Shown here piece by piece: positions 10,339 through 35,500 of a stretch of DNA of 39,596 nt. Numbering within the stretch: the first letter of the stretch is position 1; the number at the start of each line of letters is the position of its first letter. Both the position numbers and the translations under genes were made by a program. The notes beneath the pieces were generated by a model. The model had not been told where the DNA came from and made no database searches. It saw only the letters and a list, made by a program, of their open reading frames with translations. The DNA is from Oscillospiraceae bacterium (GTDB taxonomy: Bacteria > Bacillota > Clostridia > Oscillospirales > Oscillospiraceae), in the NCBI GenBank assembly GCA_031278515.1, contig JAITKI010000033.1, positions 1 to 39,596 of the forward strand, in the 5' to 3' direction.

Positions 10339-10434
10339 AAGCTCCGAAGTTATGGCGCCTCACCCGCCTTTCGAATAAAATCCTTATCACGCAAAACGGT
10401 TCCAATACCTCGCGGCTCGCCGCGAGACCGTTTA

Positions 10435-11631
10435 TCATGTCAAAAAGTCCTTGAGCTTTCTGCTGCGGCTCGGGTGACGCAACTTCCGCAGCGCTTTCGC
10501 CTCGATCTGGCGTATGCGCTCGCGCGTCACTTTGAATTCGCGCCCGACCTCCTCAAGTGTGCGCGAGCGCCCGTCCTCGATGCCGAAACGGAGTCTGAGC
10601 ACTTTTTCCTCGCGCGGAGTCAGCGTCTTCAAAACCTCCGCGAGCTGTTCGCGCAGCAGCGTGAAGGAAGCGGCCTCCGCCGGCTCGGACGCGTCCTCAT
10701 CCGGAATGAAGTCCCCGAGGTGGCTGTCCTCCTCCTCGCCGATGGGCGTTTCGAGCGATACGGGTTCCTGGGCTATCTTCAGTATCTCGCGTACCTTCTC
10801 GACAGGCAGGGACATCTCCTCCGCTATCTCCTCCGGCGTCGGGTCGTGTCCGAGCTCCTGGAGCAGCTGGCGCGACACGCGCATTACCTTGTTTATCGTC
10901 TCAACCATGTGGACGGGAATGCGTATCGTGCGCGCCTGATCCGCTATCGCGCGCGTTATCGCCTGACGTATCCACCATGTGGCGTATGTCGAAAATTTGT
11001 AACCCTTCGTGTAGTCGAATTTCTCTACCGCCTTTATGAGACCGAGATTGCCCTCTTGAATCAGATCCAAAAACTGCATCCCGCGCCCGACGTACCGTTT
11101 CGCGATACTTACGACAAGCCGCAGATTAGCTTCCGCCATGCGCCTGCGGGCGTCCTTATCGCCGGTCGCCATGAGAGTCGCAAGCTCAAGCTCTTCCTCG
11201 GCGGTGAGCAGACTCACCTTGCCAATCTCCTTGAGGTACATACGCACGGGGTCGTCCACATTCAGCGTTTCGGCAAGCGCCTCCGGCTCAACCAGTTCGT
11301 CCTCCGCGACGGTCGCTATCGCCCGGAGTTCCTCCGCCTCGACCGGGGCGTCCTCCGCGTGCGCGAGTTCCAGCTCCTCCGAGTCGATCGTGTCGATATT
11401 GAGATTCTCCAGCAGATCGTAGAACCTGTCCACCTGCTCCTGTTCGAGATTCATGTCCTCCAGAACGTCCAGCAGATCCTTTGCGCTGAGACAGCCGCGC
11501 CTCTTGCCCTCCTCAATGAGCGCGCGGAGACGCTCGTCGTTGAACATGTCGCCGAGCTTATCGATCTCGTCGTCTCCGGGTACGATCTCCGCTTCCTTTG
11601 AGTAATCCATGTTTTCCTTTGAGTAATCCAT
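10435..11631 (-). CDS. rpoD: primary RNA polymerase sigma factor (RpoD/SigA)
   Basis: Regions 1.1 to 4 are recognisable ([80 protein letters not shown]). SD GGGAGGA lies 5 nt before ATG 11631; a second in-frame ATG is at 11610. Confidence 0.95.
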
Positions 11632-11635
11632 GTTT
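11594..11635. repeat. perfect 21-bp tandem duplication spanning the rpoD start codon
   Basis: TCCTTTGAGTAATCCATGTTT occurs at 11594-11614 and again at 11615-11635. It produces the N-terminus [13 protein letters not shown] and reaches the first two bases of the dnaG stop codon (11634-11636). Confidence 0.9.
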
Positions 11636-13388
11636 ATCCTCCCAACCCTTTTATGTCTTTTATACTGCTGAAGTATTCCCCTACATTCATTTCCGCTTTC
11701 GCTTTTGCTCTGAAGCTCTCCGTCCGGATTTTTTTTATGTAGTCGCGCAGCGCCTGCTGTCCGTCCGGTATCGACTCGGGTTTTTGCAGTATGGCCGATA
11801 TGCGTTCCGCCTCGGCCGGCTTGAGCGCCGCGAACAGCGCCGCGGGCGATATCTCCTTGCCCGATTCGCTCCTGGCCCTCAGAATACCGAACGCCTTCGC
11901 CAGAAAAGGCGACGAAAACTCGCTCTCGCTGAAGTTCTCCCCGCGCGCCTCGTCAATCAGCGGCGGATCTAACAGTATACACCGTACCACCCCCTCCTCG
12001 GCTATGGCGGAATACTCGTTGGCGTATCGTATGGAGCGAGCTGACGGCTGCGCCGCCTCGGCCGGCCGCGTTATCTTCCGCTCCATGCTCCGTTTCCGCC
12101 GCCACTCGTCGCGCTTTGTCAGATTGGCGAGCTCGTTTTCGACGGCGGCGACCGATACGCCGGTCTCCTCTGCCAGACGCGCGCCGTATATCTCGCGCTC
12201 CGGACGGCTCCGTATGCCGGCGAGCATCTGCGTCGCCTCCGACAAGTATCCCACCCGTCCGTCCTCCGTATTCATGTCATACTTTCTCTTTATGTCCCCC
12301 ATCTTATATACAATATGGTTTTCGCTGCGCTCGATCAGCAGCCGGAAGGCGTCGGCGCCGAACTTATTTATGTATTCGTCCGGATCCTTCGCGCCCTGCA
12401 ACCGCAGCAGCCGCACACCCATTCCCGTCTTTTCGGTGAGACGTATCGCCCGCGCGGCGGCCTTTTCACCCGCCCCGTCCGAATCGAACGCTATCACGAG
12501 CTTGTCGGCGTACCGCGCCATAAGTCTCACCTGCGTATCCGTCAGCGAGGTACCCAGCGACGCCACGGCGCAATCAAAGCCGGCCTGATGCAGCGCTACT
12601 ACGTCTATGTTCCCTTCCGTCAATATGAGCATACCGGCTTTTGATTTTTTTGCCAGATTCAGCGCAAACAGATGTCTGCTCTTGCTGAAGACCTGAGTGT
12701 CGGGCGAGTTGAGATACTTAGGTTCGCCGGCGCCGAGCATCCTCCCGGAGAAGCCTATTACGGCGCCGCGCACGTCTATGACAGGGAATACCAACCTGTT
12801 TCTGAACGTATCATAGAAGCCCCCGCTTTTCTTGTTCTCCTTGACTAGTCCGGCGTCCAGCAGTTCCTTCGCGGCGTATCCCATCGACGTCATCGCGTCG
12901 CCCAGCGAGTTCCATGAATTGGGCGCCGCGCCAAGTCCGAAACGCGTAACCATCCGCTTTGATATCCGGCGCTCGCCGATATACCGCACGGCGGCGGCGC
13001 CCTCCGGCGACGACAACACGCCGTGATAAAATCTCGCGGCGTCGCGGTTGAGGTCGAGCAGGCGCCGTCTGCTCGTGCGCGCCGTATCCTTTGTATCGGA
13101 GACTGTCAGCCCCGCGCGGCGCGCCAGAAATTCCACGGCGTCGGGGAACGTGAGATTTTCGATCTCCATGATGAAATTGACCGCGCCGCCTCCCTTGCCG
13201 CAGCCGAAGCAGTAGTACATCTGCTTGTCGGCGCTCACGGAGAACGACGGCGTCTTTTCGCTGTGGAACGGACACAGGCCGAACAGATTGCTGCCGCTGC
13301 GCTTTGACAGCTTTACATACCCGCCTACCAACTCCACAAGATCTGTTTTCTGTACGAGCTCGTCCAAAAAGCTCTCAGGAATAGCCAT
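11634..13388 (-). CDS. dnaG: DNA primase DnaG
   Basis: ORF trimmed to ATG 13388 ([12 protein letters not shown]...). Zinc-finger [29 protein letters not shown], followed by a TOPRIM region ([11 protein letters not shown]...[10 protein letters not shown]). Confidence 0.95.
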
Positions 13389-15842: not shown

Positions 15843-15918
15843 TGGTCGGAGTGGCGAGACTCGAACTCGCGGCATCCGGCTCCCAAAGCCGGCGCGCTAC
15901 CAACTGCGCTACACCCCG
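15843..15918 (-). tRNA. tRNA-Pro (anticodon UGG)
   Basis: The reverse complement folds as a cloverleaf: acceptor CGGGGTG/CACTCCG, D-arm GCGC-AGTTGGTA-GCGC, anticodon arm CCGGC-TTTGGGA-GCCGG, T-arm GCGAG-TTCGAGT-CTCGC, discriminator A and encoded CCA. 76 nt. Confidence 0.93.
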
Positions 15919-16161: not shown

Positions 16162-16222
16162 CCGCGCACGGCGAGATCCAATCTCCCGTGACTCGTTTGT
16201 GATGGCGAAGCCATCACAAACG
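16162..16222 (+). repeat. hairpin repeat copy 2 (tail + stem CGTTTGTGATGGC / GCCATCACAAACG)
   Basis: Tail at 16162-16193. 13-bp perfect stem 16194-16206 / 16210-16222 with loop GAA. Confidence 0.8.
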
Positions 16223-16244
16223 AAATTATTCCCGCAGGACTTTC

Positions 16245-20105: not shown

Positions 20106-21797
20106 TTATACACCCGGCGCTCCCGAAATACAACTATCCGGCGCTCTCGTGTCCGGCCCGGCGCGGGCGCGAGCCAAGAGCAGCATACACCGATAATAGT
20201 CGCGCTCGCCGTCCGCGGCGCTCTCGATGAGCGCGCGGCAGCGCTCGGGCGGTCGCAGGTAATCCGAGCGCAGCGCGCCTCGCGCCAAAAGGCGTTCGGC
20301 GTACCGCGCCTGGCGCGCGTCGGCGCCCTGTCGGCGGAGAGTTTGGAGCACACGCTCCGACAGCGCCTCGTATTCCGGATTGTAAAACCGGCCGTCTTTC
20401 GCGTCGTACCTAAGTCCCCGCGCGCGGATCTGGACGGCGCCGCCGCGCGCCTCGGCCGGCCATCTCCCGCCCGGCGGCGCGTCGGGTTCCGGAAGCGCGT
20501 CGGGACTCTCCGACGTACCGGATACGTATATGTAGTATATATTCTTTATCTCGCGGTCTCCGCCGCGCCGCAGCACGCGTCCTATACGCTGTATGCGCTG
20601 ACGCGCGCCCGTGCCGGCGGAAAGTATTATTCCAACGTCCGTATCCGGTACGTTCAGCCCCTCGTCAAGCGCCCGGCAGCACACTATGACGGGGCGCTCG
20701 CCGTCCCTGTAACGCTCCAGCGCGCGCGCCTTTTCCGCGGCGTCCATGTTGCTGTGATAGCGGCATATCTTGCCGGGATACAAGGCGTCGAGTTCGCCGT
20801 ACACGAAATCGACGGTTTCTATGCGCTCGGCAAAAACTATTATGCGGCCGTCGGTTATGAGTTCTTTTACAAGCTCGACCGCGCAATCGGCGCGCGCGCG
20901 GGCCAGGTGTAGAATCTCCTTGCGGCGTATATACAGCAGCGCCAGTTGACGCGCGAGCTCGCCGGTCTTGTCAGCGCGGCCTTGCAATTGCCGCACGCCC
21001 TGTATAAAGGCGGCGCCGCGCTCGCCATTCAGCCGCGGGACGATCTTTACCAACCGCGCGCGCGTTATCGCTATCCTGTCCGTATACGAATCGTAATCCG
21101 CGCGCTCCTCGGGGGAAAAATCGACGGCTACGCTGAACACCGCGCAGCCGGAGGTCACGCTGTCGGCGGCCGCCTCCGATATGCCATATCTGAAAATCAC
21201 GCCGCCCAGCGCGGGCGCGACGGCCGTATCAAAGCCGTCGCACTCCGGCGTCGCCGACAGCCCCAGCGCGAAGTAGCGCTCCCGCGGTACGCGCGTGAGA
21301 AAATCGAAAACGCGCGCGTTGACGGCGCTCCCGAAATGGTGGCACTCATCGCATATGAGCAGTACGGAGCGTCCCGCGTCCGTATCGCGGAGTATATGAC
21401 GCGACACGCAAAAGCGCGCGGTATTGAGTACGTATATCACAAACGGTTTTTCCGGGGACTCCTTGACCGCTCCGCAATAGAGACCGATATCCCCGCGCGA
21501 AACGCCCAGGAAACGCACGATATCCGCCCGCCACTGGTGGGCGAGAAATACCTTCGGCACTACTATCCTCACGCGCAGCGACGTCTTGTCGCGCGTCTTC
21601 GCGAGCCGCTCGATCGCGGCCAGCGCCAGCAATGTCTTTCCCGCCCCCGTGGCGACGCCGGCGACGCCCTTGCACCCGTTTTCGAACCAGCGCGCGAGAC
21701 ACTCGTCCTGCCACGCGTACAGCGTCACGCCGCGCAAAGAATACACGTCCGGAAGCCCCTCCCCTCGTATGCGTTTGCAAACACGCAACGGTTGCAA
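20106..21797 (-). CDS. SF2 helicase (ResIII/DEAD-like core) with Arg-rich C-terminal extension
   Basis: Motif I GVATGAGKT, motif II DECHH, motif III SAT, motif VI QRIGRVLRRG. The last ~120 aa form an Arg/Ala-rich tail with no recognisable domain. The start is ambiguous: TTG at 21797, or GTG at 21746 with GGAGGGG about 10 nt upstream. Confidence 0.85.
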   Translation of the reverse strand: MQPLRVCKRIRGEGLPDVYSLRGVTLYAWQDECLARWFENGCKGVAGVATGAGKTLLALAAIERLAKTRDKTSLRVRIVVPKVFLAHQWRADIVRFLGVSRGDIGLYCGAVKESPEKPFVIYVLNTARFCVSRHILRDTDAGRSVLLICDECHHFGSAVNARVFDFLTRVPRERYFALGLSATPECDGFDTAVAPALGGVIFRYGISEAAADSVTSGCAVFSVAVDFSPEERADYDSYTDRIAITRARLVKIVPRLNGERGAAFIQGVRQLQGRADKTGELARQLALLYIRRKEILHLARARADCAVELVKELITDGRIIVFAERIETVDFVYGELDALYPGKICRYHSNMDAAEKARALERYRDGERPVIVCCRALDEGLNVPDTDVGIILSAGTGARQRIQRIGRVLRRGGDREIKNIYYIYVSGTSESPDALPEPDAPPGGRWPAEARGGAVQIRARGLRYDAKDGRFYNPEYEALSERVLQTLRRQGADARQARYAERLLARGALRSDYLRPPERCRALIESAADGERDYYRCMLLLARARAGPDTRAPDSCISGAPGV

Positions 21798-21815
21798 ACG
21801 CGTTTATCCCTGAAA

Positions 21816-21860
21816 AATCATTTCGTTTGTGATGGCGAAGCCATCACAAACGAAATGATT
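21816..21860 (+). repeat. hairpin repeat copy 3: 45-nt perfect palindrome
   Basis: AATCATTTCGTTTGTGATGGC (21816-21836), loop GAA, GCCATCACAAACGAAATGATT (21840-21860). The 21-bp perfect stem lies between the divergent helicase and the three-gene operon. Confidence 0.9.
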
Positions 21861-21875
21861 CCCGAAAATTTATCC

Positions 21876-21905
21876 TTGACAGCCGCTCGCGCGGGGCGAT
21901 ATAAT
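21876..21905 (+). promoter_or_regulatory. consensus sigma-70 promoter (cassette copy 3) for the three-gene operon
   Basis: TTGACA (21876-21881), 18-nt spacer, TATAAT (21900-21905). The -35 starts 23 nt after ACAAACG. The operon ATG is at 21981. Confidence 0.6.
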
Positions 21906-21980
21906 TGCGGGAAATGTCTGAATATCCGGAGCTACACCTAATTATACGGCGTAACGCTGAATTATGAAAGAGGTTTTTTT

Positions 21981-22772
21981 ATGATCTATGAAGCGTTTTA
22001 CGACGACATCCTTTCCGTCGCGGAGGAACTGAAGGAACAATTGTCGTCCCAGCAAAAGCTTGTCAAGCGTCTGATGAAGTGTGTGGGAAACGGCGACCTG
22101 AAAGCCGCCGCGCGCGAACTCCCCGCCGCGAACGCGGCCGCCGACGTCTGCGCCCGTTCGATAGCCTCGATTACCGAAAAAATCGAGGCGGCCGACATGT
22201 TCGCCTATCTCCGGTCGGGGGACTTCGCGCGGCAGCTTGTCAACATGTGCCGCGAGTACGGAATTGACATCAAAGGCGAGGGAAATTCCTATGAGGTCTT
22301 CCCGTACCGCCTGAAAATCGATCCGCAGAACGCGGAGCTTCAAATCAACGGCAAAAAAGCGCTTGGTCTGCGTCCGCGCGCCGTGGTTGAGGACCTGCAA
22401 AAGAAGCGCGCGCACCTCCTGTCCGCCTCGTTCAACCCCGCGCAGTACGCCGCCGAGCTGTCGTCGGCCTATGATCTCGCGCTTCTCGCCGCGTCCAAGG
22501 GCAAAGCGTACGCGCCCGACGCCGACGTGCATCTCACCACGCTCCACAGGTATTTGACGCCGATGCGCCGTTTTCGGCGCGACTACGACCCGCAGAGCTT
22601 CGCGTTCGACATCGCCCGGCTGTACGACGCGGAGACGGACGCGCCCGTGGTAATCGGCGACGGTCGCCGCGTACATTTCGGGCCGGGCCGCGATAACAGC
22701 AAAGCGATACGCATCCTCGACGCGCTCGGGAGCGAGCGGTTCTTGTCAACCGTCCGGTTTTACAGGCCGTAA
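21981..22772 (+). CDS. hypothetical protein (operon gene A), no family recognised
   Basis: ATG 21981 with GAAAGAGG about 7 nt upstream. 263 aa with a predicted helical N-terminus (LSVAEELKEQLSSQQKLVKRLMK). The stop lies 3 nt before the gene B ATG. Confidence 0.75.
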   Translation: MIYEAFYDDILSVAEELKEQLSSQQKLVKRLMKCVGNGDLKAAARELPAANAAADVCARSIASITEKIEAADMFAYLRSGDFARQLVNMCREYGIDIKGEGNSYEVFPYRLKIDPQNAELQINGKKALGLRPRAVVEDLQKKRAHLLSASFNPAQYAAELSSAYDLALLAASKGKAYAPDADVHLTTLHRYLTPMRRFRRDYDPQSFAFDIARLYDAETDAPVVIGDGRRVHFGPGRDNSKAIRILDALGSERFLSTVRFYRP

Positions 22773-22775
22773 CTC

Positions 22776-23825
22776 ATGAGTACGACCGTGATTTCCGGAA
22801 TTTCCGATTCCGGGGAACCTGTCCGCATGACAGAGGGCCAGATGCCCGCCGACGTCGGTTTTATCACCGATTTTTGGCGGGAGCAATATCTGGAGCCGTA
22901 TATAACGCTGGGCGGGAGCAAGATAAAGTTCGTAGTCGGGAGCCCGGGCAGCGGCAAGAGCGGCTGTCTGCGCCGGTTCGCGTCGGACGCCGCGGCCCTC
23001 GGGTGCAAAACGGCGTCGCTCTCGGCAAAAAGCGTCTGGCTCAACGACTTTAAGGAGATATACGCCGCCGTGTTCGGCGCCGTGGATTTTCAGGGCTGTT
23101 TGATGAATTGCGCGCGCAAAATTGTGTCCGAGATGGGTCGGGACTACGACGAGATACCGGACGGCATCAGCTTCGCCGACTATCTGGCGTATCTCGGGAT
23201 GCTCGACCCTGTCACGCGTCTTGAACTGCGCGCCCAGATCAATTCGATGTTTTTCAAAAATCCGCGTATGGACAAGAACTTTGCCGTCTGCGCCGCCATG
23301 CTGACGGGCGGCATTCTGGGACATCCCACACTGGAGCAGTCGTCCCGCGAATTGCTGTGGTCGTGGCTCAAAGCCGAAAAGGGCGTGCGCGCGCCGACAA
23401 TCCGCAAGCTGGGGCTGGCGCCGTACAAAATAAGCAAGCACAACGCGCGCCACATGCTGAGATCGCTCATTGAGGTCGTCCGCCTCGCCGGGTACACGGC
23501 CCTCGTCGTCGGCGTCGACGATTTGGAGATCCTGACGGAGACGTCGTCGCTCGAGGAGATACGCTATACAAAGATGCGCCGCGAGGACGCCTACGAGAGC
23601 ATAAGAGAGCTTATCGACAGCATAGACACCCTGGATTATGTGATGTTTGTGTTCGCGTTCGGACGGGAGCTTCTCGACGACGAGGTCTGCGGCTTCAAAT
23701 CGTATCAGGCGCTTTGGATGCGGATACAAAACGAAATTACGGGCGGCAAGTTCAACAGGTTTTCGGATATCATTGACATGGATCGCCTCAGAGCGCCCGG
23801 CAGTCAGGAGACTTCACATGAATAG
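22776..23825 (+). CDS. P-loop ATPase, BrxD/DUF2791-like (operon gene B)
   Basis: Walker A GSPGSGKS (22938-22961) and Walker B-like ALVVGVDDLE. The context YLEPYITLGGSKIKFVVG resembles the BREX BrxC/BrxD ATP-binding family as I remember it. Confidence 0.75.
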   Translation: MSTTVISGISDSGEPVRMTEGQMPADVGFITDFWREQYLEPYITLGGSKIKFVVGSPGSGKSGCLRRFASDAAALGCKTASLSAKSVWLNDFKEIYAAVFGAVDFQGCLMNCARKIVSEMGRDYDEIPDGISFADYLAYLGMLDPVTRLELRAQINSMFFKNPRMDKNFAVCAAMLTGGILGHPTLEQSSRELLWSWLKAEKGVRAPTIRKLGLAPYKISKHNARHMLRSLIEVVRLAGYTALVVGVDDLEILTETSSLEEIRYTKMRREDAYESIRELIDSIDTLDYVMFVFAFGRELLDDEVCGFKSYQALWMRIQNEITGGKFNRFSDIIDMDRLRAPGSQETSHE

Positions 23826-25032
23826 AACGGACAGCTATAGTGCCAGAAATATTATAGAGGCGCTGCGCTCCGGCGTGTCCTCCCGCGAAGTGGGCTGCTG
23901 CTTCTCATCGGCGCGGCCCGGACTCACGCGCGAGATCCACAACGCGCTCACCGGCGTGGCGGAGGGCGGCGAGTCCGGCGGACGCATAATTACCGGGAAG
24001 TACGGCGAGGGCAAGACGCACCTGCTCAATACCGTATTCAACATGGCGCACGAGCGGAATATGGCGGTCAGCGCCGTTACGCTCAGCAAGGAAAGTCCGC
24101 TGTCGAATCTCGGCGTGCTGTATCCCAAGGTTCTGCAAGAGACGTATCTGCCCGGAAAAGTTCAGCCGGGTATTTCGGATATATTCGAAAGACTGTCGGC
24201 CGGAAGCCCCGCCGCGGCCGCTCTGCTGGAATACTGCCTTACGAAGCTTGAGTGCAACAAACTCTACTATGTGCTGAAATCTTACCTCGGAACGCAGAGC
24301 GATGAGGAAAAATACATGCTTTTAGGCGATATCGAGGGCGATTTTATGGCGAACGCGACGGTCAAACAGATCTACAAGCGCATCTACGGCGAGACGGTTG
24401 TATTCAACACCCCGTTCTCAAAAACGCGCCACGTGACCGACTATTTCGCGTTTGTGTCGCGTCTGTTTTTATCCGCGGGATACGACGGCTGGGTCATCCT
24501 CTTCGACGAGGCCGAGCTGATAGGGCGCATGAGCAAAAAAGCGCGGCAGTCCGCTTACGCCAATATGGCGGCGCTGCTGCGCCCGGACGCCATTGACCGC
24601 GCGTACTGCCTGTTTGCGTTCAACTCCTCGTACGTACCCGACGTCATAGAGTCGAAGCACGAGTACGCTATCGTTGAGGAGTCGCCGCTGCTCTCGCAGG
24701 AGCGCAAGAAGATTATATCCGGGGTATTGTCCGAAATCGCCTCCGCCGCGCAGCTTGTGCCGCTGGGCAAGGGGGAGATTCTTGAGATTCTGGAGAAAAT
24801 ACGCGACTATCACGGCCGGGCTTACGGATGGAGTCCAAAGCCCGACGCCGCGGACATCCTGGCGTTCACCGAAAAGCACGGCTACCTGCTCAGGACGCGC
24901 ATACGCACCGCCGTGGAACTGCTCGATCAATACTACCAGTACGGTTCAGCCGACGAGATAAGCGTGGGCGAGCTGGGACAGATGGAGTTCGATGAGGACG
25001 GCGATCCGCCGTCGCTCGACGCGTTTGTATAA
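23818..25032 (+). CDS. P-loop ATPase, BrxD/DUF2791-like (operon gene C)
   Basis: ORF 23647-25032 trimmed to ATG 23818 (GGAG 8 nt upstream), which overlaps the end of gene B by 8 nt. The N-terminus ARNIIEALRSGVSSREV is followed by Walker A GKYGEGKT (23995-24018) and Walker B VILFDEAE. Confidence 0.8.
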   Translation: MNRTDSYSARNIIEALRSGVSSREVGCCFSSARPGLTREIHNALTGVAEGGESGGRIITGKYGEGKTHLLNTVFNMAHERNMAVSAVTLSKESPLSNLGVLYPKVLQETYLPGKVQPGISDIFERLSAGSPAAAALLEYCLTKLECNKLYYVLKSYLGTQSDEEKYMLLGDIEGDFMANATVKQIYKRIYGETVVFNTPFSKTRHVTDYFAFVSRLFLSAGYDGWVILFDEAELIGRMSKKARQSAYANMAALLRPDAIDRAYCLFAFNSSYVPDVIESKHEYAIVEESPLLSQERKKIISGVLSEIASAAQLVPLGKGEILEILEKIRDYHGRAYGWSPKPDAADILAFTEKHGYLLRTRIRTAVELLDQYYQYGSADEISVGELGQMEFDEDGDPPSLDAFV

Positions 25033-28790: not shown

Positions 28791-28899
28791 GATATATTGC
28801 ACGAATGGCGGAATTTGTCGTAATTTGTAGGAATTGTAACAACCCTGCGCCGCTCCAAACCCGCGCGATTCGCCGCACCCTCCCCGGTGAGTTAATCAG

Positions 28900-28944
28900 A
28901 ATCAATTCGTTTGCAGCGGTTTCGCCATCACAAACGAATTGATT
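28900..28944 (+). repeat. hairpin repeat copy 4 (degenerate upper stem)
   Basis: AATCAATTCGTTTG (28900-28913) pairs perfectly with CAAACGAATTGATT (28931-28944). The inner 17 nt CAGCGGTTTCGCCATCA keep the right upper arm GCCATCA but not the left one. Confidence 0.75.
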
Positions 28945-28959
28945 CAAATTTCTGTATAC

Positions 28960-30871
28960 AACCTAAAACCCTGATAATAGTTACTCAAAACGCTATTGCC
29001 TGATGATGCCGAGCCTTGATAGGAATAAACGGTCGCGTTTAATTGTTTCTGTTTGCCATCTACATTTGCTCATGTTCGTGTAGACCGTTGTTTCTTCGAT
29101 GCAGTCAAACCAAGCAAACAACCGCTCAATCGACATGCTGTTTAACCAGTTGAGAAGCGCCTTTTCTTCCTTCAAATTTTGCTCGGTGTCATGTAACGGA
29201 TCGCCGTTTTTTATAGCAAGAGTCTTTTTTAAATTCGAGATTGCCTGATGCAGATATTCATGGTAACAAAGCGCGACGAACTGGCAAAAAAACCGGCCGC
29301 TCAGACTATCCGGATACCATACCCTTGTTCGATTGCCGTCGACATATTGCTTATCCATGCGGAAGTGTTCCTCTATCTTTTCCCTCCGTCGGTACTTCCG
29401 CAACGCATCCCAGACATCCAGCGGCGCATTGGAAACAAGGATAAAACAACCTGCAAAACGGGTCGCATCCTGAAATGCCTCCTCATTGTATGTGATAGAT
29501 AAACCGCCTCTGGTGTTTCTGATCATGAGATATTTGTCTGCAATTCGTCGCTCACCTTCAGATATTGGTTGTACTTCGGCTTTCAGATGTTCTTGGACTT
29601 TTCTGATATCATCAGCCAGGGAGGCCGTATCGCATTCGGCCTTGGCAGCGTTTCTGTACAAGTAAAGATATATCCGATGTTCTTCTGTTACCACATCCCC
29701 TTTCGAGATGTTACTGCGGCTGCGCTCTCTGACCCGCCGGAAATTATGTTGGGTCGCGATTGCCATTCCGTACACGCTCGGGTCAAAAGGACAGTGGTTG
29801 GACAACTGACTGATAGAATTCAATATCCCATCGAACTCAGACTTAATCCATGAAGCATTCAGCTTTCCAGCGACTAAAAACTTAATATGGCTGCGTATGA
29901 GTGTCAGCATATTGTCTTCGGAATAGAATCCTGCATCCATTACAAACATTGGCTTTTCCATACCGAAGACGGAGAGTTGCTTGCTGGCGTTGATAATAGA
30001 AATGACATCTGGTATATTTCCCGGTTGTCTCGCGTAAGCAATCGGCTGTCCTGTTTCCAAGCAATACTGCGTTAAAAGTTTCACGCTCTTTAGTCCGTCA
30101 TCGCTTTTATTATAGCCGTATCTTGCTTCGATCTGGTTCTCTGAATACGACGAGACGGTAGTTGAGTCAAATGCGATGGAAGACTTGGATGGCACACGGT
30201 CAGCTCTCGCACGGAAGAATTTCTGTTGCATGTCGGCATCCGTGCCGATCGCTTTCATCAAGGCATAACATCCGTCTTGAGATATGCCGTCCCGATAGGG
30301 GATATCGTGGTTTATCTGCCATTCTTCGATATAAGGGATGGTCTTGCCTGGGTTCGCATTCCAGTAGCGGGCAATTGAAAGAATTTTCTCGGCGGTCGTG
30401 CGATCGGTAGCGTGGAGAAGATCCTGATCAATGCCGGATTCGCGGCCAATCCATTCCAGGATGCAAGCAACGCCAATCCTCTTGCTTGATGCCAATTTCG
30501 GTACGGATGCTTTTGCCCTGCGGGGTCTCGTTGAAACCATTTCTGTCTTTCCAGCCGGAATTTTACCAACCAAATGACTGCTTATAACTTCATTGAAGCG
30601 TTTTTCGGGGTTGTATTTGGTCGTTCTCTCATAAATGTAAATATCTCCATTGCCGCGTTTGACATTGACTTGCCCGGTTTTTGGCTCTAACGAAGCTTTT
30701 TTTGGCATGATGTCCCTCCTGATTTGAGTTACTATATTATATAATAGTTACTCGAATAAATCAAGAGGGAAAATACCGTTAAATGCCGAAAATAAACCAT
30801 ATTTACTGACTAATGAAGTTGAAATATCCTTTGAGGTCGTTTTTGAGTGAGCATTGTCAGGGTTTTAGGTT
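28960..30871 (-). mobile_element. insertion sequence, IS4 superfamily (IS1634-like), about 1.9 kb
   Basis: Imperfect terminal inverted repeats: AACCTAAAACCCTGATAATAGTTACTCAAAACG (28960-28992) versus the reverse complement of 30838-30871, AACCTAAAACCCTGACAATGCTCACTCAAAAACG (first 15 nt identical). One transposase gene. Visibly more AT-rich than the flanks. No target-site duplication found. Confidence 0.85.
28993..30708 (-). CDS. DDE transposase (IS4/IS1634-like)
   Basis: ATG 30708 with an AGGAGGG SD. DDE candidates FDSTTVSSYS and VMDAGFYSEDN, plus the YREK-type signature YRRREKIEEHFRMDK. 571 aa. Confidence 0.85.
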   Translation of the reverse strand: MPKKASLEPKTGQVNVKRGNGDIYIYERTTKYNPEKRFNEVISSHLVGKIPAGKTEMVSTRPRRAKASVPKLASSKRIGVACILEWIGRESGIDQDLLHATDRTTAEKILSIARYWNANPGKTIPYIEEWQINHDIPYRDGISQDGCYALMKAIGTDADMQQKFFRARADRVPSKSSIAFDSTTVSSYSENQIEARYGYNKSDDGLKSVKLLTQYCLETGQPIAYARQPGNIPDVISIINASKQLSVFGMEKPMFVMDAGFYSEDNMLTLIRSHIKFLVAGKLNASWIKSEFDGILNSISQLSNHCPFDPSVYGMAIATQHNFRRVRERSRSNISKGDVVTEEHRIYLYLYRNAAKAECDTASLADDIRKVQEHLKAEVQPISEGERRIADKYLMIRNTRGGLSITYNEEAFQDATRFAGCFILVSNAPLDVWDALRKYRRREKIEEHFRMDKQYVDGNRTRVWYPDSLSGRFFCQFVALCYHEYLHQAISNLKKTLAIKNGDPLHDTEQNLKEEKALLNWLNSMSIERLFAWFDCIEETTVYTNMSKCRWQTETIKRDRLFLSRLGIIRQ

Positions 30872-32568
30872 TGAACGCCTACAATAGCGGCGGGTATCAG
30901 GGTGTCATAAATATCAGTAACGCGGCCAGTTCCGATCCGGCTACTAAAGCCGCGAGGAACGAGGCGTTAGTTAATCTCAATGCCGCGCGAAACGCGAAAC
31001 TCGCGGGTTCCGCGTCGCCTATCACGTGGGTTGGCGACGATGGGAAGACGTACACGGCTGAATCATACATGCTTAGTAATATCGGCGGAAGTTACGCTCC
31101 CGGTGGCGCGAGTTATTCGCCGACTTCGACGTTTACGAGTAATCTGCCCGCCGGCTTTGATAGCTCGGCGGGTTTGCAGAGTTCCGGCGCGTCGTCGCTG
31201 TCGTCGTCTCAATCGTCTCCGTACACGTATTCGGACGCTATCACGTATTACAGCAATAACGCAAACCAAAGCCAGATAGATAGTTTGAGGAGCGCTATTA
31301 ACAACTACAGGAGTTTTACGAGTACGCCGCAGCCGACGTGGGACGATGTGTACAAGGACGCGTACAACGCGGCGTTGAACGAGGTGCTTGGGCGGCAGGA
31401 GTTCAGTTATGATTTGAATACCGATCCGAATTATCAGGCGTACGCGCAGCAATATCTTATGGAGGGCGATAGGGCGACGCAGAATACTATAGCGCAGATG
31501 GCGGCGCTTTCGGGCGGTATGCCGTCGTCGGCGGCGGCCACGGCGGGCCAGCAGGCGGGCGATTACTACGCGGCGCAGCTCAGCGCCAAGGTTCCGGAGT
31601 TATACCAGCAAGCATATCAGCGGTATGTCGATGAGTTCAATATGGATCGTTCGGCGCTTGGCGATGTGTATAACGCGCGTAATTTCGATTACGGCATATA
31701 TCGCGACGATGTTGGCGATTATCAGGCGAACAGGGATTTTGACTACTCCGATTATCTCAATCAGTACGATATGCTTCAAAATTCGCTCAACAACTATGTC
31801 AACGCCGATGAGACGGCGTACGGCAGGTCACGCGACGCGATAGCGGACGCGCGGTACACCGATGAGACGGCGTACAACAGGGAGCGCGACGCGATAGCGG
31901 ACGCGCTGTACGCCGACGAGACGGCGTACAGCAGGTCACGCGACGCTTTAGGCGATACTCGGTATGAGACGGAGTACGCCGACGCGTTAAAGCAGCAGGA
32001 TTACGAGAATATGACGCAGGCGCAAAAGGACGCCTTTAACAGTGCGTGGGCGATGTTTGAGGCCGGTGTCATTAACGACAATGTGGCAAAGGCTTTAGGG
32101 TACGCGACGACGGCGCAGTTGCAGGCGGCGTATGACGCGGCTGTCAAGGCGGCAAAGTCGAGCGGTACGGGTACGGGTTCCGAAAAGGAGAGCGCGGACG
32201 TTTATGTCGAGGGGCGGGGGCCTGTGACGGCGGAGCAGCTTGCGTTAGGGTTGAAGAATGGCACTGTCAAGCAGGGTACGCGCAACGGGACGACGTATTA
32301 TTACGCGAGCGATGGGATTACGCCGATATCGCTGCCCGGCAGTTCCAGTTTCTACGGCGTGCCTGTGAACGAGCAGTACAAAATTATAGAGTCAACATAC
32401 GGTAAAGTTGTGCTTGACGCGATGCAAGCTGTCGGCAGGGTCATTAGCGGTACGAATGTTTCGGATAAGGTGAAGCAGCAGAGGGCCGAGGAGGCGTTGG
32501 CAAATTACGATCTGTCCGCCGAGGAGTATGCCGGTATACTCCAGGCGTATGGTCTTTCGTATAAGTAG
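30847..32568 (+). CDS. repeat-containing hypothetical protein (phage/ICE-like), 5' end probably displaced by the IS
   Basis: The frame has high third-position GC from the first base outside the IS (30872). The track's GTG start at 30847 lies inside the IS inverted repeat, so the native start is probably missing. The product is Ser/Ala/Tyr/Asp/Asn-rich with three 18-aa tandem repeats. Confidence 0.55.
   Translation: MSIVRVLGLNAYNSGGYQGVINISNAASSDPATKAARNEALVNLNAARNAKLAGSASPITWVGDDGKTYTAESYMLSNIGGSYAPGGASYSPTSTFTSNLPAGFDSSAGLQSSGASSLSSSQSSPYTYSDAITYYSNNANQSQIDSLRSAINNYRSFTSTPQPTWDDVYKDAYNAALNEVLGRQEFSYDLNTDPNYQAYAQQYLMEGDRATQNTIAQMAALSGGMPSSAAATAGQQAGDYYAAQLSAKVPELYQQAYQRYVDEFNMDRSALGDVYNARNFDYGIYRDDVGDYQANRDFDYSDYLNQYDMLQNSLNNYVNADETAYGRSRDAIADARYTDETAYNRERDAIADALYADETAYSRSRDALGDTRYETEYADALKQQDYENMTQAQKDAFNSAWAMFEAGVINDNVAKALGYATTAQLQAAYDAAVKAAKSSGTGTGSEKESADVYVEGRGPVTAEQLALGLKNGTVKQGTRNGTTYYYASDGITPISLPGSSSFYGVPVNEQYKIIESTYGKVVLDAMQAVGRVISGTNVSDKVKQQRAEEALANYDLSAEEYAGILQAYGLSYK
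31807..31968 (+). repeat. 3 x 54-bp in-frame tandem repeat
   Basis: Units at 31807-31860, 31861-31914 and 31915-31968 encode DETAYGRSRDAIADARYT / DETAYNRERDAIADALYA / DETAYSRSRDALGDTRYE. A partial fourth unit (TEYA) follows. Confidence 0.85.
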
Positions 32569-32588: not shown

Positions 32589-35500
32589 GTGGCTACCGCA
32601 ATTGACAGGATAATATCGTTGCGCGCGCGGAAAGCGTCGTCTGTGGGCGCGACTTCCGAGGCGGGCGCCGCGTGGGAGACGTCCGACGGGCGTGTGATTT
32701 CCGCGCCTACGCGCACACTTGCGCGGATTAAGGCGTTGCGGGAGTCCGGTACGGCGCGGTCGGCGGATGAGATTTTGCGCGAGGTACGCGAAGAGCAGGA
32801 GGCGGAGCGGACGGAGGCGGCGCGGGCGGCTGTTGAGGCGGCTGTGAAGGCGCGTAACGCGTCGCCGCTCGAGTCGTGGCTGCCGCGCGCTTCGACCGAC
32901 GAGGTCGCGCGGTACCATGAGCAGAAGCAGGAGCAAATTGACAAACTCCAATTCGCCGAGGCGGGTTTGCCGTTTCCGACGGGCGCTGACGCTGTGCGGG
33001 ATTACGCGGATTCTGAGTGGTCTGTGCTGCGTGAACGCGGCGCGGCGCGGAAGTACAACGCGAATCGCGCGGAGTACGATAAGTTGGCGGCTTTGCCCGC
33101 GACTCCGGCAAACGCCGCCAAGATGGCGCTTCTCAACGCGGATATGGAGGGGTATATCCGCTACGGGGATAATAAGAACGAGTATACCGAGCGGAAGAGC
33201 GCGTATGATAAGGGTTTGGATGATACGCGCGCCAGACTTGCGGAGTTGAAGGATACTGATTGGCAGGAATATGAGCGGCTGCTTAGAGAGACAAAGGAAA
33301 AGACGCCGCGGTACAACGCCGAGAAACAGTCGCTGGATGAGTTTTCATCTTCCCGGCAGAAGTCGGAGCGCGCGGCATACGCGGAGGCTTTGAAGATTGA
33401 GGATGAGCAATATCGTTTGAGGGCCGATTCCGGCTCAAAGGCGTACAAGAGTACCGTAAAGCTCGGGCAGGCGGAGGCGGAGCGTATCGCGGGTTTTACG
33501 GCAGACGAGACTACGGCGGCGACGGGAGATAAGTCGTCGCCTTTGACGTATACACAGCAACGTATCGTAAACAGAATCGTTCATGGGGCTTCCGCCGCTA
33601 AGCCTGTGTCGTACGAGCCCGGGTACGTCGATGTTACGGGTAAGGATTATTATGGGAAGTACGATTATCTGTCCGATAATGAGAAGACTGATTTCTATTA
33701 TTATCTCGGCAAGGGCGATACAGATGGCGCGTTTCGGTATCTCGGTATGCTCGGGACGACGCTCGAGGCGCGTGAGACGGGGAAGTACAAGGAGGATTTG
33801 AGCGCGGCGGCGAAGGAGGATCCCGCGGGGGGCGCGTTTTTGCAGTTTATGGCGAATTTCGCAACGCCGGGTGATTTGCTTGCTATGGGCGGCGAGGCGT
33901 TGGCGAACGCTGTCAGGGGCGACGCCAAGTACGAACCGGCGCGCCCGTCGAGTTCCGCGTATAGGGCGTCACAGAGTGTGTCGGCGCTGGGGCAGGGCGT
34001 CGAGGCGCGTATAAGGGAGGGTCTTGACGATACTAAGCCTGTGTTTCTCGGTATGACAATGGCGGATTTGGCGGGTCAGGGGTATCAGCTCGCGCAGTCT
34101 ATTGCGCAGTCCGGCGCGAATATGGCGCTGTTTGGGCCGGCGAGCATTTACGTGATGGGCGCTCAGGCGGCGGGTAACGCGGCGTACAACGCGGCGGAGC
34201 GCGGGTTGGCTCCGGATCAGGCGTTTTTGCTCGGACTCGGGAGCGGCGTCGTTGAGGCTGTCACGGAGAAGGTGTCTGTCGATCGTTTCTTCAAGCTGTT
34301 GGAGCAGGGTAAAAAGTTGAGCGCGAAACAGATGCTTTTGCAGATTGCGCAGCAAATGGTGGCGGAGGGCAGTGAGGAGGTCGTCGCTGAAGAGCTTAAC
34401 AATTTGGTCGATATTTTTGTTGCGGGCGACGCTTCGGAGTACGCGCGTTACAAGGCCGGGCTTGTCGAGAGCGGTATGAGCGAGTCCGAGGCGGAGAAGT
34501 CGGCTATGCTGCAATACTTCGTAAAGAACGCGGCGGTGGCCGGTATTGGGGGCGCTGTTTCCGGCGGTTTGTTCGGCGGCGCGGGCGCTGTGGGGAATAA
34601 CGCGCGAGTCGCCGCCTATGAGCGCGCCGTACAGGGCGCACAGGCTGCGCAGGGTGGTATAGTGCCGCAGGGTGGTACAGTGCCGCAGGGGCGGGAAAAT
34701 TCGCTTCCCGCGGCGATACAGGGCGATACGGCGCGGGGTAACGCGGCGAGGCCGGATGTGGCCGGTCTGATTCAGTCCGGGCCGAATCTGAGCAGACAGG
34801 AGGCTGCGGCTGCCGCGCTTGCGTCGGGCGATACTGATGTCAACGCAATCTTTCCGGCGGCGCGGAACGCCGGTTACAATCAGGGCGAGAGAGAGGGCGC
34901 GGCTGCGGATGGCGTGACTGCGGACGGCGATGTCTCAAATTTGTCGAGTCCGTGGGATTTGACGGCTGCCGATGTGACGGAACTTTTCGACGCTTACGAG
35001 GTTGCGCGGGAGGATAGGCCGGACGCGCAGAGGGCTGCGGATATTATCAACAAGGTGCAGCTGGGCGAGCAGTTGGGCGAGGCCGAGGTGATGCTGCTCG
35101 TCGAGTATCCGGAGTTTGCGTCTATCGCGGCGGAGTATGAGAGTTCAGAGCTTGGCGGGCGCGGTTTGGCGGATAGTGCGGCGCGGCAGGGCGACGCGGG
35201 ACAGGTTGTGACGGCGCGGGACAGTACGGGACAGGTCAATACGCAATCGGCGGCTCAGGCGGGTCAGGCGCAAGGCGCGTCGGTTTCCGGTGTAATCGGA
35301 CTAAATGGGGAGGTTTCAGGTAATGGCGAACAGGGCGGAGCGCAACAGCGAGGCGAGATACTTGATAGAGGATACGGACGGGTTTCTGATGAGTCTGACG
35401 GAGTCGCAGTTGAAAATGTATCGGGAGAACAAGGGCAAGACTATCCTGCCGAGGTCAGACGAGCGGCAGATAATAGACGAAATCTTTTACCAAATCAGGG

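Follow-up and report, generated by a model that had tools for sequence, protein, structure and literature searches.

A candidate defence cassette with two BrxC/BrxD-type ATPases and a PbeA/XPB-like helicase in an Oscillospiraceae genome

Background

Several described systems combine an ATPase with a helicase. The Shango system consists of the TerB protein SngA, the DUF2791-type ATPase SngB, and the helicase SngC. PbeABCD is a system that is centred on a CxC ABC ATPase and is coupled to DNA phosphorothioation. It has been reported to halt viral replication with no degradation of DNA (PMC6459918). The BREX protein BrxD and the helicase BrxHI form a tightly linked pair, for which helicase loading has been proposed (PMC12839542). 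Embedding of genes in known defence systems has served as a predictor of new ones, and seven of nine defences predicted in this way were validated (bioRxiv 10.1101/2024.01.29.577857).

Here we describe a locus of an Oscillospiraceae bacterium in which the gene of an SF2 helicase is divergent from three genes, designated A, B, and C. It lies in a stretch of 39,596 nucleotides, called “the window” below. An earlier interpretation made from the letters of this DNA (the sequence-only reading) regarded the locus as a defence-like variant of Shango with a duplicated ATPase.

Results

Organization of the locus

Re-analysis of the open reading frames bore out the four genes, their spacing, and the motifs quoted in the sequence-only reading (Table 1). 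The gap between A and B is 3 nt. B and C overlap by 8 nt, with an AGGAG Shine-Dalgarno sequence 7 nt upstream of the ATG of C. The predicted promoters in the spacer between the helicase gene and A are back-to-back and divergent; they are pattern matches only, from a consensus scan that gave 7 sites versus 1.7 expected in the shuffled region.

Table 1. Features of the locus (positions in the window)
Feature	Position	Strand	Description
Helicase ORF	20106-21797	-	563 aa, TTG start
Predicted sigma-70-like promoter for A-B-C	21876-21905	+	TTGACA-18-TATAAT, 12/12 consensus matches
Predicted sigma-70-like promoter for helicase	21968-21941	-	TTCATA-16-TATAAT, 10/12 consensus matches
Protein A ORF	21981-22772	+	263 aa
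Protein B ORF	22776-23825	+	349 aa
Protein C ORF	23818-25032	+	404 aa; ATG at 23818 within a longer ORF from 23647

The genes are flanked by GNAT, Fe-ADH, and argG genes on one side and by a hybrid sensor kinase gene on the other. Past the sensor kinase gene there is a complete IS with inverted repeats at 28960-28990 and 30841-30871, followed by a giant ORF of the phage/ICE “polyvalent” type, in which MuF_C and PBECR5 domains occur. Within the window, the IS and the polyvalent-protein gene are 4-8 kb from the cassette.

ATPases B and C

Both B and C match the Pfam family PF10923 (BrxC/BrxD), with 73.2 bits (E 2.5e-20) and 89.7 bits (E 2.5e-25), respectively, which is above the gathering cut-off of 22.2 bits. 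The best match of each protein both in PADLOC and in NCBIfam is BrxD. In PADLOC, which was used without a curated cut-off, BrxD gives 49 bits for B and 52 bits for C; the scores of SngB are lower (36.5 and 46.7 bits). The NCBIfam equivalog of BREX type 2 BrxD (NF033438) gives 48.6 and 52.2 bits, not reaching its cut-off of 350. The assignment of both proteins to the BrxD/DUF2791-type ATPases, already made in the sequence-only reading, is thus upheld by the PF10923 scores and the PADLOC matches to BrxD and SngB.

B carries the motifs GSPGSGKS (K61) and VVGVDD (D248-D249), and C carries GKYGEGKT (K66) and ILFDEAE (D230-E231). In C, both Walker A (GEGKT, K66) and the DE of Walker B (230-231) are canonical and do not vary across distant clades. 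Residues 9-25 of C are ARNIIEALRSGVSSREV, about 45 aa ahead of the P-loop. The N-terminal part of C bears the motif E-x-LRSG-x3-R; further features are a conserved LLRTRIR segment and an acidic tail at the C-terminus. According to a comparison of 72 orthologues, Walker B of B has the form D-D/N-x-E, in which the catalytic Glu is missing. The P-loop is intact in B of the window and is gone from B of two other loci (L088 and L171). B of the window is a short form lacking a C-terminal tail of about 57 aa. The short form recurs in L006, L008, L083, and L088, and therefore B of the window is not a pseudogene.

An hhalign comparison of B with C gave 77% probability at 18% identity. BLAST showed B-to-B and C-to-C orthology across clades, and in L082 the two are fused into a single 752-aa protein. 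B and C are ancient paralogues. Weak profile matches link C to DnaI (E 0.02) and Hda, which are helicase loaders, and also to DnaA/Hda models.

Helicase

The motifs of the helicase are GVATGAGKT (K54), DECHH (150-154), SAT, and QRIGRVLRRG, and it has Pfam ResIII and Helicase_C matches. The PADLOC PbeA model aligns with it at profile positions 250-635 of 672 with 185 bits, and its identity to the corresponding half of PbeA from locus L170 (a genuine PbeA, see below) is 29%. A sequence search against PDB found archaeal XPB (2fwr, E 9e-25) and XPBII (5tnu), the alignment spanning both RecA-like domains of XPB and the thumb-like insert. The alignment to 2fwr begins at XPB residue 83, and the N-terminal damage-recognition domain of XPB is absent from the helicase. 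The RED motif of XPB is not kept, with “PECDG” of the helicase opposite “FEREDG” of XPB, and the NCBIfam XPB model gives 64 bits versus a cut-off of 610.

The HKD/PLD nuclease domain is absent as well: the core begins at about residue 24, leaving no room for it. At the other end, some 130 additional residues (430-563) form a C-terminal tail. The best 25 PADLOC matches of the helicase are to models of PbeA, Cas3, DpdE, BrxH, and restriction enzymes; SngC is not among them, down to E 0.0025, and BrxHI models give only 18-24 bits. On these comparisons, the protein is a predicted XPB/Rad25-like SF2 helicase or translocase, nearest to the helicase half of PbeA.

Protein A

No match of protein A was found in Pfam, PADLOC (E <= 0.1), NCBIfam, or PHROG. 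Among 51 diverse members of its family there is no consistent weak Pfam match and no TerB-family signal at E <= 1. In the structure check proposed in the sequence-only reading, the AlphaFold2 model is confident (pLDDT 89.7 overall and 88.0 in the C-terminal domain), but Foldseek found no neighbour below E 0.04 in PDB or BFVD. The model consists of an N-terminal antiparallel helical hairpin (residues ~3-70) and an alpha/beta domain with many conserved Arg and aromatic residues. The family includes 668 cluster representatives, nearly all of them stand-alone proteins of about 260 aa, and no conserved catalytic constellation is seen across the superfamily. Protein A represents an uncharacterised family and is the signature gene product of the cassette.

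Distribution and conservation

We define the cassette as an A-family gene followed by orthologous PF10923 genes B and C in one operon, and this is the arrangement in the window. There are 304 matches among 185,579 species-representative genomes (~0.16%), patchily distributed over at least four phyla and located at different chromosomal sites. In the best 80 of these 304 loci, A-B-C is complete wherever the DNA reaches far enough. The helicase gene adjoins A in 73 of the 75 assessable loci among them, so that the synteny of the four genes expected in the sequence-only reading extends across genomes. The order A, then B, then C is the same in the window, the 80 genome loci, metagenome loci, and nine distant loci. 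The 80 loci share no fifth conserved gene, their flanks vary, and integrase, relaxase, partition, or other mobile-element genes are not conserved with the cassette.

Pairwise identities of the four proteins correlate (r = 0.89-0.95), and in a Mantel test of A against the helicase 0 of 999 permutations were as high as the observed value. Copies of A from Synergistaceae are 62-63% identical to A of the window and those from Lachnospiraceae only ~42%, which suggests horizontal transfer. Since the cassette has no match among PLSDB plasmids, INPHARED phages, or IMG/VR contigs, only its phylogenetic patchiness points to mobility.

The nine distant loci, in which orthologues carry the PF10923 annotation, differ in their contexts. 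A-B-C is situated within a CRISPR-Cas locus (L088), next to type I CRISPR-Cas (L087), next to a BrxC/PglY-like gene and methyltransferase genes (L086), between HmaB with HEC-01A and HmaC (L172), or 1 nt ahead of a complete set of PbeABCD genes (L170), whose full-length PbeA scores 777 bits over profile positions 6-668. In L169 it is alone in purely housekeeping surroundings. The helicase partner in the distant loci is of the SNF2 type, a complete PbeABCD system, or none. Thus the conserved core of the cassette is A-B-C, and the helicase partner is exchangeable between clades. In the clade of the window, the core is paired with a predicted nuclease-free, PbeA/XPB-like SF2 translocase.

The distant relatives located within or next to other defence systems (CRISPR-Cas, BREX-like, Hma, and Pbe) agree with the expectation that the genes map to defence islands. 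Such enrichment is weak in the clade to which the window belongs: immediate neighbours are mostly housekeeping genes, and among 130 neighbours there are only scattered defence matches and heterogeneous Pfam families.

Comparison with described systems

Like Shango, the cassette is a compact operon that has no nuclease and in which a PF10923-type ATPase goes together with an SF2 helicase and a small partner that is not an enzyme. It differs in that A gives no TerB, TerB_N, or TerB_C signal, in having two ancient ATPase paralogues instead of one, and in its PbeA/XPB-like helicase, which the core lacks in several clades. We rejected membership in Shango, as A gives no TerB match (Pfam and PADLOC, E <= 0.1) and SngC is not among the best 25 PADLOC matches of the helicase. 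The idea of a Shango variant with a swapped TerB partner is not supported in that form: the helicase is XPB/PbeA-like and has no SngC model among those 25 matches, BrxD outscores SngB for both B and C, their duplication is ancient and orthologous across clades and not a recent doubling of a Shango ATPase, and around the A-B-C core the helicase is PbeA-like, SNF2-like, or absent depending on the clade.

With type 2 BREX (Pgl) the cassette shares a stand-alone ORC/Cdc6-type BrxD ATPase paired with an SF2 helicase, but this helicase is not Lhr/Ski2-like as BrxHI is, and A is an additional component. The sequence-only reading was right that the locus is not BREX: its neighbours, listed above, include no BREX genes, and membership was rejected as PglZ, PglX/BrxX or PAPS reductase, BrxC/PglY, and PglW are all missing at the window locus.

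The helicase half of PbeA is the closest counterpart of the window's helicase, which lacks the HKD nuclease domain. PbeB, PbeC (CxC ABC ATPase), PbeD (DndE-like), and dnd genes are neither found in the window nor conserved among the 80 loci. PbeABCD membership was rejected because the HKD-helicase fusion is missing and PbeC and PbeD are not adjacent. The two RecA-like domains and the thumb-like insert of archaeal XPB (Rad25) align with the helicase; membership was rejected because the damage-recognition domain and the RED motif are missing. Compared with XPB-Bax1, the cassette additionally lacks the Bax1 nuclease and has the extra C-terminal tail of the helicase.

Discussion

We hold, with moderate confidence, that the locus is probably an entire defence-type cassette, acting against phages or plasmids, which is horizontally mobile and is missing from the catalogues searched. 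The defence phenotype is one that we infer from context: such a role is backed by the distant relatives found within or next to the genes of other defence systems (CRISPR-Cas, BREX-like, Hma, and Pbe). No homologue with an assigned function was found, and the computational analysis gave none of the results that the sequence-only reading had named as evidence against itself, such as failure of B and C to match BrxC/BrxD-type profiles or loss of synteny.

The same contexts would also suit an accessory sensor or regulator that plugs into CRISPR-Cas, BREX, Hma, and Pbe, the window's clade having kept a PbeA-derived helicase as the only partner. The triad lies within or beside CRISPR-Cas, BREX-like, Hma, and complete PbeABCD loci, its helicase partner is variable or absent, and it has no effector domain. 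We nevertheless regard this explanation as unlikely. In some 300 genomes the four genes occur by themselves, in unrelated and mostly housekeeping contexts and with no other conserved neighbour, the L169 locus has A-B-C alone among housekeeping genes, and embedded genes have generally proved to be independent systems (bioRxiv 10.1101/2024.01.29.577857).

It is improbable that the cassette serves to replicate or maintain an integrated mobile element, with initiator-type AAA+ proteins acting together with the helicase and A binding the origin. No mobile-element gene is conserved with it, there are no plasmid, phage, or viral-contig matches, several clades have no helicase, and a site inside CRISPR-Cas and Hma operons is unlike that of a replicon. 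These facts outweigh the attached helicase, the IS and phage/ICE polyvalent gene 4-8 kb away, and the placement of B and C in the initiator/helicase-loader AAA+ clade with weak DnaI, DnaA, and Hda matches.

Still more improbable is a housekeeping pathway of DNA repair or associated with transcription, analogous to XPB-Bax1. Alignment of the helicase over the whole XPB core and the mostly housekeeping neighbours in the window's clade are compatible with it, but the cassette occurs in ~0.16% of species genomes, patchily across phyla and at differing chromosomal sites, its distant members are in defence loci, and the RED motif, the damage-recognition domain, and a Bax1-like nuclease are missing. 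Least probable of all is that a larger system of the Pbe, BREX, or Shango kind is decaying and has left a non-functional remnant, which would account for the loss of the HKD nuclease of PbeA from the helicase and, in B, of the catalytic Glu and (in the window) the C-terminal tail, but the four ORFs are intact, motifs are kept across dozens of divergent orthologues with 31-67% pairwise identity, and the same “losses” are fixed in entire clades, in keeping with purifying selection on a stable architecture.

A defence cassette of the kind that we favour may work as follows. B and C would assemble into a hetero-oligomeric AAA+ complex of the ORC/Cdc6/DnaC (initiator/helicase-loader) kind, with C as the ATP-hydrolysing subunit and B as a nucleotide-binding regulatory or structural subunit. 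ORC/Cdc6, DnaC/DnaI, and DnaA/Hda belong to the same AAA+ clade, and in them heteromeric active and degenerate subunits load a helicase. However, the sequence similarity is marginal (E 0.02 at best), the partner in the cassette is an SF2 translocase and not a hexameric replicative helicase, and the cassette is sporadic in distribution and linked to defence loci. The cassette has no recognisable effector (nuclease, protease, or NADase) that would stop an infection, which speaks against a defence role, above all for the helicase-less versions. Protein A may use its coiled-coil hairpin and basic alpha/beta domain to serve as an adaptor or sensor. The trigger would be recognition of the invader by its DNA, a replication intermediate, or one of its proteins. 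The complex would then load or activate the helicase on the invader DNA, and translocation would block replication or propagation of the invader with no cleavage by the proteins of the cassette.

Conservation and hosts of the cassette

The SF2 helicase gene and the divergent A-B-C operon form a genuine, conserved and unnamed cassette, which is best read as a defence module that pairs a BrxD-type ATPase with a helicase and has A as its novel signature protein. When one genome per species was scanned with a pattern, 304 matches were obtained, i.e., about 0.16% of species genomes. Synteny was counted in the best 80 of these 304 loci. B follows A in 79 of the 80 and is itself followed by C in 75; the remaining contigs end too early. 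The helicase adjoins A in 73 loci (divergent in 71, co-directional in two; 2.7–3.2 kb are inserted between the two genes in 2 of the 73), and in five of the remaining seven the available upstream DNA is shorter than 0.7 kb. With these five set aside, the helicase is present in 73 of 75 assessable loci, and the four genes do co-occur, which the sequence-only reading had proposed to check. Clustering of all ORFs flanking the best 80 loci revealed no fifth conserved gene; the next commonest cluster, with members in 17 loci, contains generic ABC ATPases whose position varies. Compared pairwise between loci, the identities of the four proteins correlate (r = 0.89–0.95 for 59 loci), and none of 999 permutations in a Mantel test of A against the helicase reached the observed value.

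The hosts include Lachnospiraceae, Oscillospiraceae, Desulfitobacteriaceae, Syntrophomonadaceae, Synergistaceae, Coriobacteriales and Spirochaetales. The A proteins of termite-gut Synergistaceae are closer to that of the window (62–63% identity) than those of Lachnospiraceae (about 42%), and these sequence identities argue for a spread of the cassette by horizontal transfer within a habitat. A metagenome scan with the C-family alignment returned mostly the window's own clade. Six loci of this clade (L001, L068, L107, L110, L134 and L153) have no helicase within flanks of 3–10 kb. In L001 the place upstream of A is taken by a PDDEXK_2 transposase-like gene.

Gene organization and other features of the window

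Positions of the genes and other features are collected in the table. The ATG at 23818 is the biologically sensible start of C because it is aligned with the N-termini of orthologues and preceded by an AGGAG Shine-Dalgarno sequence. The gap between A and B is 3 nt and the overlap between B and C is 8 nt, which agrees with the earlier reading, and all motifs quoted there were found in the four proteins.

Features of the window
Feature	Position	Strand	Remarks
tRNA gene	15846-15918	-	sole Rfam match at gathering threshold in the window
Palindrome copy	16193-16223		intergenic, identical core
Helicase	20106-21797	-	563 aa, TTG start (ORF listing)
Palindrome	21816-21860		45 nt, perfect; in helicase 5' leader
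A	21981-22772	+	263 aa (ORF listing)
B	22776-23825	+	349 aa (ORF listing)
C	ORF 23647-25032, start 23818	+	404 aa
Acidic tail of C	24985-25032		'(S)LDxF'-like end
Palindrome copy	28899-28945		intergenic, degenerate core
IS element	28960-30871		complete
IS inverted repeats	28960-28990 and 30841-30871		31 nt, 87% complementary
DDE_Tnp_1 transposase	28993-30708	-	571 aa
ORF directly after IS	30847-32568	+	573 aa, no Pfam match
Tandem repeat	31805-31946		54 nt, 2.6 copies, within the 573-aa ORF
Giant ORF	32589-39596	+	>2336 aa, runs past the window end

Back-to-back sigma-70-like promoters are predicted in the spacer between the helicase and A, with a perfect TTGACA-18-TATAAT towards A. Between these promoters and the helicase start lies the palindrome AATCATTTCGTTTGTGATGGC-GAA-GCCATCACAAACGAAATGATT, for which no occurrences are expected by chance. 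A role as a system-specific operator was rejected, since the core recurs in one further intergenic region and, in degenerate form, in another. Because of this recurrence within the window we regard the palindrome as a REP-like genomic repeat; the copy in the leader may affect helicase expression.

G+C drops to about 0.46 across the IS element. The giant ORF encodes MuF_C (residues 1231–1331) and PBECR5 nuclease (1875–2122) domains, a HExxH-like 'HELFH' motif and two copies of a ~30-aa internal repeat ('SKAKSNRNSA.NQSQSDST.KVEDFTK'). Such an ORF is of the phage/ICE 'polyvalent protein' type, which marks the right end of the window as mobile-element DNA.

The ATPases B and C

The earlier assignment of B and C to DUF2791/BrxD-like proteins is supported by profile search: they score 73 and 90 bits, respectively, against PF10923 (BrxC/BrxD), above the Pfam threshold of 22.2. 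For both, PADLOC ranks the BrxD model first and that of the Shango ATPase SngB second. Their scores against the NCBIfam BrxD equivalog are about 50 bits, far under the cut-off of 350, so B and C belong to the superfamily yet are not BrxD itself. Judging by hhalign (77% probability, 18% identity), they are distant paralogues. BLAST shows B-to-B and C-to-C orthology throughout the distant loci, i.e., the remote A-B-C relatives, and the duplication is therefore ancient.

Walker A (GEGKT) and Walker B (DE) of C are invariant in all clades. The Walker B DE is replaced by D-[D/N]-x-E in B, whose P-loop is wholly lost in the distant loci L088 and L171. We rejected the possibility that B is a truncated pseudogene, the same short form being found in four other loci (L006, L008, L083 and L088). 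The two proteins are naturally fused in L082, where residues 2–303 of the product are B-like and 345–593 are C-like. The degenerate motifs of B, the invariant motifs of C and the fusion suggest a heteromeric AAA+ assembly. By analogy with ORC/Cdc6 and clamp/helicase loaders, this suggests one catalytic and one regulatory subunit. The C profile has marginal matches to the helicase loader DnaI and to Hda/DnaA. A kinship with DS-41 (DefensePredictor) was considered and dropped: the match has 15 bits and covers the P-loop only, and the paper contains no matching architecture.

In the helicase-linked clade the acidic tail of C ends in similar tips (EFDEDGDPPSLDAFV in the window, ...SSLDPFIQ in L001, ...PSIEDF in L015). 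They resemble the C-terminal tip of SSB and could, speculatively, be a docking motif for the helicase.

Protein A

No match to A was found in Pfam, PADLOC, NCBIfam or PHROGs, and none of the models in PADLOC-DB v2.0.0, which covers the HEC and PDC candidates, represents it. Its 124 close relatives, of ~260 aa, are all 'hypothetical'. A profile search of 1.84 billion cluster representatives gave 668 A-family members, nearly all stand-alone. Among 51 diverse members there are neither recurrent weak Pfam matches nor a TerB signal, which is also absent from A. The profile of A gave only coiled-coil noise against PDB sequences. The AlphaFold2 model is confident (pLDDT 89.7; 88.0 for the C-terminal domain predicted alone) and has a helical hairpin at the N-terminus with an alpha/beta domain after it. 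Foldseek searches of PDB and BFVD with the full model and the C-terminal domain gave nothing below E 0.04, and a match to MutH has a probability of just 0.06–0.07. Thus A, called unassignable in the sequence-only reading, still has no significant structural neighbour in these databases.

Conservation in the A superfamily is chiefly aromatic/hydrophobic, with a few Arg residues, and there is no conserved acidic/Lys/His catalytic constellation. For this reason we take A for an adaptor, a sensor or a nucleic-acid-binding protein and not for an enzyme; lacking also profile and structural matches, it was rejected as a TerB-like protein or nuclease. A 646-aa 'fusion' match of the A profile (P0186, L085:3030-4970; E 5e-39, residues 491–618) was dropped as well. 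Its annotation is rhamnosidase, the surrounding genes are for glycan metabolism and include neither B nor C, and a chimera from assembly or gene calling is the probable explanation.

The helicase

The helicase has the Pfam domains ResIII and Helicase_C. Its best PADLOC match is PbeA, an HKD nuclease fused to an SF2 helicase (PMC10853773). The match covers the helicase half only (profile positions 250–635 of 672), the nuclease part being absent. PDB sequence search aligns the protein over the entire core of archaeal XPB/Rad25 (2fwr, E 9e-25; XPBII 5tnu). It has neither the XPB N-terminal damage-recognition domain nor the RED motif, and carries an extra C-terminal tail of ~130 aa. For PbeABCD, the closest relative of the helicase with experimental data, a halt of viral DNA replication that involves no DNA degradation was reported (PMC6459918), a claim that has been questioned (PMC10853773). 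The cassette differs from Pbe in having no HKD domain and no PbeB, PbeC or PbeD genes. Neither a nuclease nor any other effector domain could be recognised in the cassette.

Distant loci and defence context

Nine distant contexts were read out of the 668 A-family members.

Gene composition and neighbours of the distant A-B-C loci
Locus	Composition	Neighbours
L083/L084	A-B-C, convergent bare SNF2-type helicase	PIN, TatD
L171	A-B-C, co-directional bare SNF2-type helicase	Uma2 nucleases, DUF4011 helicase
L082	A, B-C fusion (752 aa), 183-aa protein (no PADLOC match), SNF2-type helicase; region 10005-12818	HicB
L170	A-B-C, 1 nt later complete PbeABCD	integrase, another SNF2 protein
L086	A-B-C, no helicase	BrxC/PglY-like gene, methyltransferases
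L087	A-B-C, no helicase	beside type I CRISPR-Cas
L088	A-B-C, no helicase	within CRISPR-Cas locus, between effector and adaptation genes
L172	A-B-C, no helicase	between HmaB + HEC-01A and HmaC
L169	A-B-C, no helicase	housekeeping genes

The SNF2-type helicases of the distant loci are unrelated to that of the window; on these sequences, A-B-C is the core and the helicase is exchangeable. The PbeABCD-like genes of L170 (12351-16980) encode PbeA (777 bits), a 61-aa protein, PbeC (690 bits) and a DndE-like DNA_S_mod_dnd_assoc_4 protein. This PbeA is 29% identical to the window helicase, and such a junction of A-B-C with PbeABCD may be the evolutionary source of the HKD-less PbeA-like helicase.

The suggested location in defence islands holds for distant loci in or beside CRISPR-Cas, BREX-like, Hma and Pbe genes, but the link with defence is weaker in the window's own clade. 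The genes immediately adjacent to the cassette in that clade are varied, most of them metabolic or regulatory (191 Pfam families among 130 proteins), with only scattered defence matches (DpdF, AbiE, DrmC, PsyrT and PDC-S04). The embedding of genes in multi-gene defence systems has served well for predicting new defences: 7 of 9 such candidates were validated (bioRxiv 10.1101/2024.01.29.577857).

Discussion

Full-text literature searches found no description of the cassette. It is not a BREX locus, as was recognized from the sequence: PglZ, PglX and BrxC are absent, and B and C are under the BrxD equivalog cut-off. The further suggestion of a Shango-type variant is not sustained. A has no TerB signal, there are two ATPases of ancient duplication instead of one, and SngC is not among the helicase's 25 best PADLOC matches (down to E 0.0025). 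The closest parallels to its proposed mode of action are the BrxD-BrxHI and SngB-SngC pairs. BrxD, classed among the ORC/Cdc6-type AAA+ proteins, forms a tight pair with the BrxHI helicase, whose loader it is proposed to be (PMC12839542).

We consider it fairly probable that the cassette is a defence-type system, counting in the rival possibility that A-B-C is an accessory module for other defence systems. An accessory role agrees with the embedding in defence loci but is ill-suited to the roughly 300 stand-alone cassettes. Against a mobile-element replication module stand the lack of cassette matches on plasmids, phages and viral contigs and the lack of mobile-element genes conserved with the cassette. 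A housekeeping repair pathway fits poorly with carriage by only about 0.16% of species genomes and with the loss of the XPB hallmarks. A decaying remnant is contradicted by the intactness of every ORF and by motifs conserved in dozens of divergent orthologues.

To the observed gene content, motifs, B-C fusion and genomic context, the defence reading adds a complex of A-B-C with the helicase, a trigger and a defence phenotype, all of which we infer. A-B-C would recognise invader DNA or an invader cue and then load or activate the translocase, which would block invader replication. Our confidence in this specific loading mechanism is lower than in the defence assignment. More broadly, and only as a tentative proposal that we think rather unlikely to hold in full, A-B-C would be the core of a self-sufficient nuclease-free immune module (~670 clusters, several phyla). 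An A-guided loader-like AAA+ assembly, with active C and degenerate B, would recognise invader DNA, deploy a paired SF2 translocase and abort invader replication. The translocase would be PbeA/XPB-like, SNF2-like or borrowed from a host system (Cas3, HmaA). If true, such a module would provide a mechanistic model for the unexplained BrxD-BrxHI and SngB-SngC pairs.

How a BrxD-type ATPase works with a helicase is unsolved in type 2 BREX and Shango, and the cassette is a minimal version of that partnership. Its active/degenerate ATPase split, B-C fusion, interchangeable helicases and freedom from nucleases make it a tractable system in which to study immunity of the 'ATPase loads translocase' kind. 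It also joins the candidate systems that lie within CRISPR-Cas, Hma, BREX and Pbe loci. Among the many new defence candidates, this one is distinguished by being a minimal nuclease-free model and by its orphan protein family, as A defines a sizeable family without annotation or structural neighbour. Gut and anaerobic Bacillota, Synergistota and Spirochaetota are poorly covered by E. coli-centred screens, and the cassette, if validated, would extend the defence catalogues for these bacteria.
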